Assembly: GCA_964016885.1 (NCBI GenBank)
Contig: CAXHJY010001158.1
Coordinates: 62,001 to 126,000, forward strand
DNA: 64,000 nucleotides
Source of the DNA: Eledone cirrhosa
Taxonomy: Eukaryota
Direction of reading: 5' to 3'
Shown here: in pieces, positions 1 to 64,000 of the stretch
Layout of the letters: each line of letters opens with the position of its first letter
How positions within the stretch are numbered: position 1 is the stretch's first letter
Notes under the pieces: model-generated
The model's input: only the letters and a program-made list of their open reading frames with translations
Databases searched by the model: none
Told to the model about the DNA's origin: nothing
Made by a program: the position numbers and the translations under genes

Positions 1-3000
1 AGTAGCAAATATTCGAACGAGACATTCGTATTCGAAAGAACGTTTGTCTGGAAGTTGCGATCCATGCCCGGTGGATAGTTGGTTCCGGGCTTTACTATGA
101 TTGTTGCAAAACAGAAACTTAAAGGGATTGACAGAATTTGCGATTCCGGAGAGGGGGCGATCCGTCTGCTTGATTTCGATAACGAACGAGACATTCGTAT
201 CCGAAAGAACGTTTGTCTGGAAACTGGTGAGTCAGTGAGTCGAAAAAAAAAATATCTCGGTGGTAGTAGCAAATATTCGAACGAGACATTCGTATGCGAA
301 AGAACGTTTGTCGGTGGTAGTAGCAAATATTCGAACGAGACATTCGTATGCGAAAGAACGTTTGTCGGTGGTAGTAGCAAATATTCGAACGAGACATTCG
401 TATGCGAAAGAACGTTTGTCTGGAAGTGGCGATCCATGCCCGGTGGATAGTTGGTTCCGGGTTTTACTATGATTGTTGCAAAACAGAAACTTAAAGGGAT
501 TGACAGAATTTGCGATTCCAGAGAGAGGGCGATCCGTCTGCTTGATTCCGATAACGAACGAGACATTCGTATCCGAAAGAACGTTTGTCTGGAAACTGGT
601 GAGTCAGTGAGTCGAAAAAAAAATATCTCGGTGGTAGTAGCAAATATTCGAACGAGACATTCGTATGCGAAAGAACGTTTGTCGGTGGTAGTAGCAAATA
701 TTCGAACGAGACATTCGTATGCGAAAGAACGTTTGTCTGGAAGTGGCGATCCATGCCCGGTGGATAGTTGGTTCCGGGTTTTACTATGATTGTTGCAAAA
801 CAGAAACTTAAAGGGATTGACAGAATTTGCGATTCCGGAGAGGGGGCGATCCGTCTGCTTGATTCCGATAACGAACGAGACATTCGTATCCGAAAGAACG
901 TTTGTCTGGAAACTGGTGAGTCAGTGAGTCGAAAAAAAAAATATCTCGGTGGTAGTAGCAAATATTCGAACGAGACATTCGTATGCGAAAGAACGTTTGT
1001 CGGTGGTAGTAGCAAATATTCGAACGAGACATTCGTATGCGAAAGAACGTTTGTCTGGAAGTGGCGATCCATGCCCGGTGGATAGTTGGTTGCGGGTTTT
1101 ACTATGATTGTTGCAAAACAGAAACTTAAAGGGATTGACAGAATTTGCGATTCCGGAGAGGGGGCGATCCGTCTGCTTGATTCCGATAACGAACGAGACA
1201 TTCGTATCCGAAAGAACGTTTGTCTGGAAACTGGTGAGTCAGTGAGTCGAAAAAAAAAATATCTCGGTGGTAGTAGCAAATATTCGAACGAGACATTCGT
1301 ATGCGAAAGAACGTTTGTCGGTGGTAGTAGCAAATATTCGAACGAGACATTCGTATGCGAAAGAACGTTTGTCGGTGGTAGTAGCAAATATTCGAACGAG
1401 ACATTCGTATGCGAAAGAACGTTTGTCTGGAAGTGGCGATCCATGCCCGGTGGATAGTTGGTTCCGGGTTTTACTATGATTGTTGCAAAACAGAAACTTA
1501 AAGGGATTGACAGAATTTGCGATTCCGGAGAGAGGGCGATCCGTCTGCTTGATTCCGATAACGAACGAGACATTCGTATCCGAAAGAACGTTTGTCTGGA
1601 AACTGGTGAGTCAGTGAGTCGAAAAAAAAATATCTCGGTGGTAGTAGCAAATATTCGTATGCGAAAGAAAAGATCTCGGTGGTAGTAGCAAATATTCGAA
1701 CGAGACATTCGTAGGCGAAAGAAAAATATCTCGGTGGTAGTAGCAAATATTCGAACGAGACATTCGTATTCGAAAGAACGTTTGTCTGGAAGTTGCGATC
1801 CATGCCCGGTGGATAGTTGGTTCCGGGTTTTACTATGATTGTTGCAAAACAGAAACTTAAAGGGATTGACAGAATTTGCGATTCCGGAGAGGGGGCGATC
1901 CGTCTGCTTGATTCCGATAACGAACGAGACATTCGTATCCGAAAGAACGTTTGTCTGGAAACTGGTGAGTCAGTGAGTCGAAAAAAAAAATATCTCGGTG
2001 GTAGTAGCAAATATTCGAACGAGACATTCGTATGCGAAAGAACGTTTGTCGGTGGTAGTAGCAAATATTCGAACGAGACATTCGTATGCGAAAGAACGTT
2101 TGTCGGTGGTAGTAGCAAATATTCGAACGAGACATTCGTATGCGAAAGAACGTTTGTCTGGAAGTGGCGATCCATGCCCGGTGGATAGTTGGTTCCGGGT
2201 TTTACTATGATTGTTGCAAAACAGAAACTTAAAGGGATTGACAGAATTTGCGATTCCGGAGAGGGGGCGATCCGTCTGCTTGATTCCGATAACGAACGAG
2301 ACATTCGTATCCGAAAGAACGTTTGTCTGGAAACTGGTGAGTCAGTGAGTCGAAAAAAAAAATATCTCGGTGGTAGTAGCAAATATTCGAACGAGACATT
2401 CGTATGCGAAAGAACGTTTGTCGGTGGTAGTAGCAAATATCCGAACGAGACATTCGTATGCGAAAGAACGTTTGTCGGTGGTAGTAGCAAATATTCGAAC
2501 GAGACATTCGTATGCGAAAGAACGTTTGTCTGGAAGTGGCGATCCATGCCCGGTGGATAGTTGGTTCCGGGTTTTACTATGATTGTTGCAAAACAGAAAC
2601 TTAAAGGGATTGACAGAATTTGCGATTCCGGAGAGAGGGCGATCCGTCTGCTTGATTCCGATAACGAACGAGACATTCGTATCCGAGAGAACGTTTGTCT
2701 GGAAACTGGTGAGTCAGTGAGTCGAAAAAAAAATATCTCGGTGGTAGTAGCAAATATTCGTATGCGAAAGAAAAGATCTCGGTGGTAGTAGCAAATATTC
2801 GAACGAGACATTCGTAGGCGAAAGAAAAATATCTCGGTGGTAGTAGCAAATATTCGAACGAGACATTCGTATTCGAAAGAACGTTTGTCTGGAAGTTGCG
2901 ATCCATGCCCGGTGGATAGTTGGTTCCGGGTTTTACTATGATTGTTGCAAAACAGAAACTTAAAGGGATTGACAGAATTTGCCATTCCGGAGAGGGGGCG

Positions 3001-61600: not shown

Positions 61601-64000
61601 CTCTATATCTCTTTCTCACTCTCTGTCTGTTTTATTAAGACCTGGAGAGGTGATGTACTCTACCAGGTTTTATAATGAGTGATGGGGTCATACCTGCCTG
61701 CTACACCTCTGTGTACTAAGTGTAGCATATTATATCCTTGTTCAGGGCCTTCCTGACATTACTGTGTACTAAGGGTAGCATTTTATATCCTTGTTCAGGG
61801 CCATCTTAACATTGCTGTGTACTAAGTGTAGCATATTATATCCTTGTTCGGGGCCTTCCTGACATTAGTGTGTACTGAGTGTAGATTTTAACATCCTTGT
61901 TCTGGGCCTTCCTAACATTACTGTGTACTGAGTGTAGATTTTAACATCTTTGTTCAGAGCCTTCCTTACATTACTGTGTACTAAGTGTAGCATTTCATAT
62001 ACTTGTTCTGGGCCTTCCTAACGTTACTGTGGAAATAGTAGTTTATATCCAATATGTAATATAGATATGGATTCTACAGGACTAAAACTCATTAATATGA
62101 GGGGTATTAGTAGATTATATGCCATATTTAATAGAGAAATGGCTTCTACAAGACTAAAACTCATTAATATGAGGGGTATTACAGTTTATATGCCATATTT
62201 AATACAGAAATGGCTTCTAAAGGACTAGAACTCTTTAAATTGAATAAAATAGTAGTATATATCCTATGTTTAATACAGAAATGCCTTCTAAAGGACTCAT
62301 TAATATGAGGGTATTAGTAGATTATATAACATATTTAATACAGAAATGGCTTTTAAATTCAGGGACTCGTTAATTTGATGGAAATAGTAGTGTCTATGCA
62401 ATATTTAATACAGAAATAGCTTCTACAGGACTAAAACTAATTAATATGAGGGGTATTAGTAGTATATGTGCCATATTTAATACAGAGATGGCTTCTAAAT
62501 GGAGGTATCTCATTAATTCGATTGAAATGGTAGTGTATATGCAATATTTAATACAGAAATAGCTTCTACAAGAATAAAACTCATTAATATGAAGGTTATT
62601 ATTACATTATATGCCATATTTAATACAGAAATCGGTTCTAAAGGACTAGAACTCTTTAATTCAAATCAAATAGTAGTATAAAGCAATATTTACTACAGAA
62701 ATGGCTTCTACAAGACTAAAAATCCTTAATATGAGGGGTATTGTTAGATTATATACCATATTTAATACAGAAATGGCTTCTAAATGAAGAAATCTCTTTA
62801 ATTCGATAGTAATAGTAATAATAATAATAGTAATAGTAATAATACAGCCAATTTTCCACGCAATACTTTTAGTTAGCACCCCGAACGCATAATTGGGAAT
62901 ATAATCACTTATTTCCTAATGTTTGTTGAGTGAGTTGGGAAAAAAAACTTGGGAAATATATTTTCAGGGTCTCAAAATCTTAAAGAGAAAAAAAAGTCCT
63001 GTGGAAGGTAGCAAAACAATTAGGAAGAAAATGGTTTGAAGTTGGTTGGTGAGTATAAGATTACAGTATCTTGTTGATTTCTATAAAGTTTACTTTTAAC
63101 TGAATTGGTAAAAATGGATAAATTAGAAGACACAATATAATAACTAATATTGTCTTCTAAAACAGGGAATAAAAATATGTTGGTGTATTGGGGGGGGGGG
63201 GGGGGGTAAACATGTGAGTTAATGGGAATGTTTTTGTTTGTTTTTATTGAAACATATTCAATCTACAGATAGGTTGTTATAGTTATTTAGTCTCGGGTCT
63301 GCCATTATCTGCAGATTTATAATTGAGGGGTGTTCCAGGTGTGACCACCCTACATTATTCCTAGAGATTGTTACTCCTTCATTCTTCAGTCATCTTGGTC
63401 TTCTTATGAGATGGTGGTGTAGTCTTATTTATTGTTAAGGTTATGGTCTTCCTTTGTCCACACTCTCTATCTATCTATCTATCTATCTATCTATCTATCT
63501 ATCTATCAAAGGCTTCCTTCTCTGGAAAAAAATGATTTAATATTCACAACCATCTGTCTAATTGTTTTCTGATGAGAATAAAGTTAATCTTGCTTGTATG
63601 TCTACCTGATCAAATGACTGGCTGATATCTTGAAGTCATTTACACCACAGAACTGTAGGAGTCTTGATCCCTCAAGCCATACCTCTAGCCATCATGTACT
63701 CCAAAAGAGTCTCACCTTGGTGCTACTCAACATGTCCATTAAATTTAGCAGCAAGGATGCCCTCTTCTTAGTGAGAGACAACTACAAGAGAGGTTCTTAG
63801 AGAAGAATAAGCCACTATAGTTAACTTTTGTTGACATAGAGAACCCCGATCTGTCATCTGGTGGTCCTTAAGGAAACTAGGTGTAGGGGAATGGCTTGTG
63901 AGGACAGTGCAAGCTATGTACAAGGGTGCTGTCAGTAAAGTGAGAGGAGGAATTCCAGAAACAAAGTAGGTGTACATCAGGGTTCGGTCCTCAGTCCGCT

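Follow-up and report, generated by a model that had tools for sequence, protein, structure and literature searches.

A 64,000-nucleotide stretch of the genome of the octopod Eledone cirrhosa (the window; positions 62,001–126,000 of the unplaced contig CAXHJY010001158.1, here C1185) lies inside a tandem array derived from ribosomal DNA (rDNA). The repeating unit is probably a 45S rDNA unit that has been gutted and fused to about 27 kb of DNA rich in transposable elements (TEs), with a core of ribosomal RNA (rRNA) gene scraps scrambled at microhomologies, so that the whole would be a non-coding macrosatellite that lacks a promoter and owes its uniformity to unequal exchange and gene conversion. 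About 90% of the 18S and 28S sequences and all of the 5.8S sequence are missing from the unit. The initial annotation contained neither this pseudogene nature, with its lack of an initiator, nor the satellite of rRNA scraps, nor the scaffolding of the main block on a probable Z chromosome.

Structure of the unit and extent of the array

Self-BLAST resolves the window into two colinear copies, offset by 36.4–36.7 kb before a long interspersed nuclear element (LINE) and by 32.8–33.0 kb after it. Measured from tail to tail, unit A is 36,674 bp long (window 4605–41278) and unit B 31,539 bp. Outside simple repeats, an alignment of 14,639 bases between the two contains 10 mismatches and 10 gap openings, and this near-identity extends through TE fragments that are only 67–70% like other copies of their families. 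The differences that self-BLAST and alignment reveal are the counts of variable-number tandem repeats (VNTRs), one LINE present in A only (approx. 19175–22415) and one swapped segment. The initial annotation had described a tandem macro-repeat with an rDNA-like head, near-identical across old TE fragments and differing in these three ways; all of this is borne out, the head being real rDNA-derived sequence and the array larger than was claimed. The whole 173,768-bp contig is built of head-to-tail units, with five heads. Heads were counted across the assembly as exact matches of a 32-mer spanning the head junction, with the reversed pattern as a control: 59 matches were obtained against none for the control. 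They are distributed over C28 (43), C178 (7), C1185 (5) and C18, C398, C760 and C1204 (1 each). The C28 block carries its 43 heads in 1.78 Mb (124.69–126.47 Mb), at a median head-to-head spacing of 37.8 kb (n = 42; 39 spacings of 28–53 kb and three of 71–91 kb). The 59 units (approx. 2.2 Mb) are a floor for copy number. A tandem, multi-copy, rDNA-derived unit at a few loci is what characterizes an rDNA-derived satellite or macrosatellite, and the array has this form.

The unit begins with a telomere-like tract, followed by 172-bp repeats from the 5' external transcribed spacer (ETS), ETS remnants, the first 190 nt of 18S and the satellite. Next come the last approx. 460 nt of 28S, with deletions, remnants of the 3'ETS and intergenic spacer (IGS), a displaced 28S piece and approx. 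27 kb of other DNA. The features of the window are as follows.

1–4604, plus strand: end of the preceding unit's scrambled-rRNA satellite core; monomers of 263–467 bp with 54-bp subrepeat differences.
4605–5007, plus: remnant of the 28S 3' end (true 28S nt 5745–6206), with internal deletions and 8% substitutions; Rfam LSU match of 61.6 bits.
5055–5330, plus: 3'ETS/IGS remnant, including part of a spacer subrepeat without the initiator motif; 10% substitutions.
5399–5443, plus: Rfam histone stem-loop match; the same motif forms an inverted pair on C18.
6199–6405, plus: displaced 28S piece (28S nt 684–878), 1.5% substitutions; the C18 copy is 225 nt longer.
6405–6619, plus: 16-bp G-rich minisatellite.
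6620–11880, unstranded: tandem module of 1.58–1.78 kb with a 645-bp near-perfect palindrome (6620–7264); it has its own approx. 107-kb array on C18.
11530–12770, unstranded: swapped segment, type A.
12771–32858, unstranded: captured spacer, TE-rich, in which VNTRs of 48, 53 and 71/142 bp occur alongside microsatellites; it is not rDNA IGS.
19445–22318, minus: LINE open reading frame (ORF) 2, 957 amino acids stop to stop, with endonuclease and reverse transcriptase (RT), in an approx. 3.2-kb insertion inside a TA microsatellite.
25771–26542, plus: second, separate 5'ETS-derived copy; 4–6% substitutions.
32859–32952, plus: telomere-like (CCCTAA)n tract, directly abutting the ETS repeat.
32949–34054, plus: 172-bp repeat from the 5'ETS, 6.4 copies here and 2–11 among units; it starts approx. 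170–210 nt downstream of the candidate RNA polymerase I (Pol I) initiator.
34055–34412, plus: 5'ETS remnants with an approx. 810-nt deletion.
34413–34602, plus: first 190 nt of 18S; nine of 233 columns carry a substitution relative to true rDNA (range compared, 34368–34602).
34605–41278, plus: scrambled-rRNA satellite of 20 monomers, with pieces of 18S, internal transcribed spacer 1 (ITS1) and 28S, all in the sense strand.
41279–64000, plus: the next unit's 28S tail and spacer, without the LINE and with swap type B (47922–49222), continuing past the window.

Further telomere-like tracts occur at 22813–22875, at 23092–23138 and before 25771. Such a tract stands directly before both ETS-derived segments, a pattern expected if a broken rDNA end had been healed as a telomere; these tracts may simply be common in this sequence. 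Searches for tRNA and tmRNA returned none, the Rfam scan gave neither 5S nor anything else above its gathering score apart from LSU and the histone stem-loop, and three further ORFs in the spacer have no Pfam match.

Loss of the rRNA genes and their candidate initiator

Of 18S the unit keeps 260 of 2,872 nt and of 28S 596 of 6,206 nt, with nothing left of the 159-nt 5.8S, and one unit lacks any 18S head. A functional 45S array would carry all three genes at full length. It would also carry an initiator. A motif before the gene and in the spacer subrepeats is the usual layout of duplicated promoters, and true rDNA of this species has a candidate of this kind approx. 1.78 kb upstream of 18S and in every approx. 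710-bp spacer subrepeat. From this position, and from its likeness to the plant Pol I start (PMC6589552), the motif is taken as a putative Pol I initiator. It occurs 19, 29 and 8 times in three true-rDNA stretches and not at all in the 15 array-containing stretches scanned (sets of 10 and 5, with one stretch in both).

The spacer, too, is foreign. At an identity of 90% or above, true rDNA units account for only 616 of its 26,543 bases, so it is captured DNA and not the species' IGS; the 'giant spacer' of the initial annotation holds as an analogy only. Drosophila-type arrays use promoter-bearing IGS subrepeats as building blocks, whereas here only the initiator-less part of a single subrepeat is kept. 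A linkage of histone genes and rDNA, which the stem-loop match might suggest, is rejected: IGS-derived sequence lies directly upstream, and the motif is probably one arm of an inverted-repeat element, as in the pair on C18, and not the end of a histone gene.

The true 45S arrays lie on C4 (352.06–352.17 Mb; units of 39–40 kb), C12 (25.06–25.11 Mb; 22.5 kb) and C25 (23.00–23.05 Mb; 19.5 kb). Their rRNAs are very long (18S 2,872 nt and 28S 6,206 nt; C4:352,068,447–352,078,814), and the C4 units have an extra TE-rich spacer of approx. 20 kb. Homogenization across chromosomes is weak: C4 matches C12 and C25 at 99.0–99.4% in 18S, 90–93% in ITS and approx. 97% in 28S, and these are possibly distinct rRNA subtypes. 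The assembly holds 23 exact true-18S heads, and the true arrays are likely to be collapsed in it. About 14 single true-rDNA heads (orphons) are dispersed outside the arrays on C1, C2, C3, C4, C6 and C10.

Against true rDNA, the unit shows 3.9% substitutions in the 18S head, 4–6% in the ETS pieces, 8% in the 28S tail, 10% in the 3'ETS/IGS and 1.5% in the displaced 28S piece. The 18S head is judged to be free of rRNA constraint because its 3.9% compares with an 18S divergence of only approx. 0.6% among the true arrays. The macrosatellite shares with the 45S arrays of this genome the source of its ETS, 18S, ITS1, 28S and IGS pieces, the head-to-tail order and a similar uniformity. It differs in that it contains no complete rRNA gene, lacks 5.8S and the candidate initiator, and has an unrelated spacer and an inner scrambled satellite. 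It turns over like an rDNA array but is not one.

The inner satellite

The approx. 318-bp monomer contains five exact matches of at least 15 nt to transcribed rDNA; 200 dinucleotide shuffles give 0.005 on average. Its pieces were assigned by iterated local alignment, for which the null distribution has a 95th percentile of 24 and a maximum of 31. Six are significant.

18S 575–587, sense: score 26, borderline against the null 95th percentile.
18S 2041–2076, sense: score 67.
ITS1 275–293, sense: score 38.
28S 2062–2100, sense: score 73.
28S 1375–1392, sense: score 31, equal to the null maximum.
18S 1839–1896, sense: score 67.

The monomer is a series of 13–60-nt scraps of 18S, ITS1 and 28S in scrambled order, and the assigned pieces cover approximately three-quarters of it. 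Successive donors share microhomologies of 5 nt (18S/18S), 10 nt (18S/28S), 4 nt (28S/ITS1) and 8 nt (ITS1/second 28S). Serial template switching during repair, of the type termed fork stalling and template switching or microhomology-mediated break-induced replication (FoSTeS/MMBIR), gives microhomology joins, and the pattern seen here appears to match it. Among 10 blocks examined the satellite ranges from 4 to 38 monomers (1.3–13.4 kb). A monomer 24-mer has 919 exact matches in the assembly, with positions known for the first 100, and solo copies may exist elsewhere.

The monomer might instead have arisen when a reverse transcriptase switched among fragments of pre-rRNA, its product then being inserted in an rDNA copy, with the later steps unchanged. 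All six pieces come from pre-rRNA, ITS1 included, and share the sense strand, and LINE reverse transcriptases are abundant here. This origin is nevertheless improbable. The frame in which the monomers sit is colinear genomic rDNA with spacer sequence, DNA template switching explains the microhomology joins, and neither a poly(A) tail nor a target duplication was seen at the ends of the satellite blocks. A possible inverted ITS1 piece is also present in the monomer; it does not reach significance.

Homogenization and turnover

Diversity was measured in 15 units, at 28 single-nucleotide polymorphism (SNP) sites kept after three of 31 beside simple runs were dropped. The mean pairwise difference is 0.05%. 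In C4 true rDNA the corresponding values are 0.13–0.14% for one of two other units and 0–0.02% for the other, so the initial description of the array as homogenized like rDNA fits its measured uniformity. Seventeen SNP sites are singletons and 11 are shared; 27 of the 55 shared pairs show all four gametes, as do LINE presence and swap type, for which all four combinations are found among units. These four-gamete patterns favour turnover over a single clonal burst, and the head-to-tail units are, like those of a functional array, homogenized by recombination.

The LINE occurs in 11 of 14 spacers scored. Its frame is stop-free in 10 of 12 full-length copies, the remaining two having one or two small gaps. 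It is the only long RT ORF of the spacer, combining endonuclease and RT, and is regarded as a passenger since no ORF1 was seen. Within one unit of C178 (L097:1–5737) lies an inserted LINE, apparently full-length, whose two long reading frames were identified by eye; the start of C178, considered as a natural array edge, was rejected on finding this insertion.

The initial annotation left the choice between concerted evolution and a very recent amplification. A single very recent burst, for example by rolling-circle amplification with no continuing homogenization, would account for the very low diversity, the preponderance of singletons and the mostly unbroken LINE frame. It is very unlikely given the four-gamete patterns among SNPs and structural variants and the numerous duplications and deletions inside the array. 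An old pseudogene whose copies are nonetheless very young and recombining is in line with concerted evolution; a recent burst may also have come first, with turnover following it.

Read evidence

Reads of four of the 23 listed runs were compared over window 34060–34930. In run X1, array-specific contigs have a depth of 3,614–3,770 and true-rDNA-specific contigs 3,633 and 4,526 (ratio approx. 0.8–1.0); at one site, the array allele stands at 3,693 and the true allele at 3,633. Run X21 consists of raw restriction-site-associated DNA (RAD) reads from another sample and study under the same species label. Here 35 reads terminate at a site specific to the array and have the allele of the first monomer; in the rest of the head, array alleles appear in only 1–3 reads per site, which may reflect restriction sampling.

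The array is not a haplotype artefact, since its depth is like that of true rDNA and a second individual carries it. The possibility, noted at the outset, that two haplotypes had been assembled in tandem is excluded by the 59 copies together with this depth. More broadly, an assembly artefact in which haplotypes or collapsed reads are placed in tandem could draw on the unplaced window contig and the gap-bounded C28 block; against 59 heads of differing internal structure, the X1 depth and the X21 junction reads, it is hardly credible.

Run X5 is RNA-like by size. True 18S has a depth of 3,903 and the monomer 114, and no array alleles are seen in the 18S head. For the monomer signal, carry-over and weak transcription are indistinguishable. 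Ten runs labelled as other organisms (X4, X6–X14) contain 0.23–0.29 of the query words, against 0.28 expected from common monomer words. X4, the one of the ten examined in detail, has an essentially identical monomer (depth 16.7, against approx. 110,000 in X1) and lacks the head junction; its dominant 18S matches a universal stretch only. The X4 pattern is read as cross-contamination rather than as conservation of the monomer across species, and cross-contamination from a very deep repeat is likely for all ten. Six metatranscriptome entries share 0.05 of the query words and carry no weight as evidence.

Chromosomal placement

C28 (136.5 Mb) is ordered after much smaller chromosomes, among them C12 (50 Mb), C18 (44 Mb) and C25 (29 Mb). 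All three exon hits of Amnionless fall on C28, and this gene is Z-linked in O. vulgaris (10.1101/2024.12.09.627507). SPAG9 (PMC10925132) was taken as a second Z marker; a SPAG9-like exon lies on an unplaced contig, and JIP_LZII was not found. PMC13122204 offered no usable marker. C28 is probably the Z chromosome. Placement of the array on it rests on scaffolding, because the block ends on both sides at gaps of 200 N and its flanks share no sequence with the C1185 units at 95% identity or more over at least 150 bp.

On C18 (6.67–6.85 Mb), one rearranged unit and an approx. 107-kb array of the hairpin module are joined without gaps to non-array DNA. Copies there are more diverged (0.21% versus 0.08%; hairpin module 98.5% versus 99.6–100%). 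The 225 extra nucleotides of the 28S piece are absent from the approx. 0.73 Mb of non-C18 stretches searched, and an intact dispersed TE on C18 spans the point at which the main unit breaks. By these sequence comparisons the unit was probably assembled on C18, although C18 might also mark the actual edge of the entire array.

The hairpin-module array itself (C18:6,746,545–6,853,339) comprises tandem modules of 1.6–1.8 kb, each with an approx. 645-bp near-perfect palindrome, and is stable in gap-free assembly despite its hairpin potential. Between 6.6 and 12.4 Mb, C18 also carries seven copies, 97–100% identical, of a TE-containing segment, a local and young segmental-duplication family.

Elsewhere in the assembly there are five haemocyanin genes that appear to have seven functional units each, as counted from the hit list: three in tandem (C1:173.74–173.91 Mb) and an inverted pair (C26:21.93–22.02 Mb). 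Two divergent haemocyanin units lie at C27:61–67 kb. The best PDB match of a single unit is 1JS8, an octopus haemocyanin, at 855 bits against 734–738 for the next. Among coleoids, seven-unit haemocyanins are the mark of octopods, and both features point to an octopod host.

Origin and maintenance of the array

The probable course of events can be set out in steps. (i) One rDNA orphon would have been broken, and its interior replaced through a chain of short template jumps. (ii) The patch would then have expanded to a satellite, while the copy drifted neutrally by approx. 4–8%. (iii) The unit may have been put together from TE-rich DNA of the C18 region. (iv) Amplification would have produced the large array now scaffolded on the probable Z, in which unequal crossover and conversion would replace units by one another and spread passengers such as the LINE.

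Several observations weigh against this account. The initiator is a candidate named for its place and for its resemblance to a plant motif rather than from mapped transcripts. Each copy of the 172-bp repeats carries two derived changes (window 33085–33100) that create a TATA/initiator-like hexamer absent from true ETS copies, so transcription could still take place, and the monomer reaches its depth of 114 in the RNA-like run. No CpG decay is seen (22 of 524 CpG sites, against 44 of 646 other G/C sites) and there is therefore no sign of methylation silencing. Neutrality accounts neither for depth parity with true rDNA nor for the lack of SNPs in approx. 1.6 kb around the 28S tail, where approximately three are expected; neither is significant evidence of selection. 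The gaps bounding the C28 block bear on its placement, and RNA-templated jumping would give the same uniform sense orientation of the monomer pieces.

The array might instead be a functional rDNA-like element on the Z, such as a nucleolus tether, a pairing or chromatin-sink locus, or a source of small RNAs against conserved rRNA segments. Depth close to that of true rDNA, the concentration of 43 of 59 heads on the Amnionless chromosome, the amplified ETS repeats with their gained hexamer and the position of the monomer's pieces in what we take to be conserved rRNA cores all speak for it. So does the persistence of rRNA-free IGS repeats on Drosophila sex chromosomes (PMC8794474). The reading is rather unlikely. 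The native initiator is absent, one unit does without the 18S head, satellite blocks vary tenfold in length, divergence looks neutral, array 18S-head alleles are not seen in X5, and the conserved-core bias may be a detection effect. Its boldest form, also unlikely, is that the octopod Z carries a decoy rDNA array with as many units as real rDNA, in which a re-evolved initiator-like motif drives a satellite of rRNA-core scraps. In a manner dependent on Z dosage, such an array would tether the nucleolus, draw off Pol I factors or supply small RNAs directed at rRNA, with a twofold difference between ZZ males and Z0 females.

Even as a neutral macrosatellite, the array would be a dead rDNA copy that has re-entered concerted evolution as a unit of approx. 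35 kb and reached the abundance of the working genes. It would record, base by base, successive template jumps made at microhomologies across a 13-kb rDNA unit, and offer a natural control for whether rDNA-style homogenization needs Pol I transcription. If the Z placement holds, it also gives a very old sex chromosome an rDNA-like landmark of megabase size. In practice, the array would distort rDNA copy-number estimates, 18S 5' amplicons and fluorescence in situ hybridization (FISH) of rDNA in Eledone cirrhosa, and its very deep monomer appears to leak into unrelated sequencing runs.

Relation to known systems

The literature listings searched, which take in few subscription papers, turned up neither this element nor any rDNA-derived macrosatellite from a cephalopod, nor a satellite built of scrambled rRNA scraps; a mention may exist in genome-note supplements. 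The Y-linked IGS repeats of Drosophila are presumably promoter-bearing, and DXZ4 and chicken MHM are further macrosatellites with which the array can be compared.

The lamprey Germ1 element is an amplified, defective repeat derived from rDNA, in which 28S is truncated and a tandem repeat lies inside (PMC9734144, PMC5381345), features that the macrosatellite shares. Germ1, a repeat of the kind removed from the soma, is germline-enriched and is described as having an R2-derived region that abuts its truncated 28S. In the macrosatellite, by contrast, both genes are gutted, the 28S tail adjoins the satellite, the inner repeat is itself made of rRNA scraps, and no R2 ORF was seen. In Drosophila simulans and D. 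sechellia, Y-linked IGS repeats exist without rRNA genes (PMC8794474, PMC9031259). The likeness lies in rDNA-derived repeats free of rRNA genes, and would extend to their place on a sex chromosome if the scaffolding on the probable Z is right; the Drosophila repeats are IGS tied to X–Y pairing, whereas the macrosatellite has a 35-kb unit without an initiator and with ETS and gene scraps. Human rDNA pseudogenes (PMC5381670) are likewise displaced from the nucleolus organizer region and decaying, but they are dispersed and mutually divergent, whereas the macrosatellite has been re-amplified and homogenized. rDNA–TE hybrids (PMC10946416) offer a further comparison. D4Z4 and megabase-scale TE tandem arrays (PMC5932611) share with it the multi-kilobase head-to-tail units of variable number, homogenization by recombination and TE passengers, and the macrosatellite is set apart from them by its much larger unit, rDNA origin and nested satellites.

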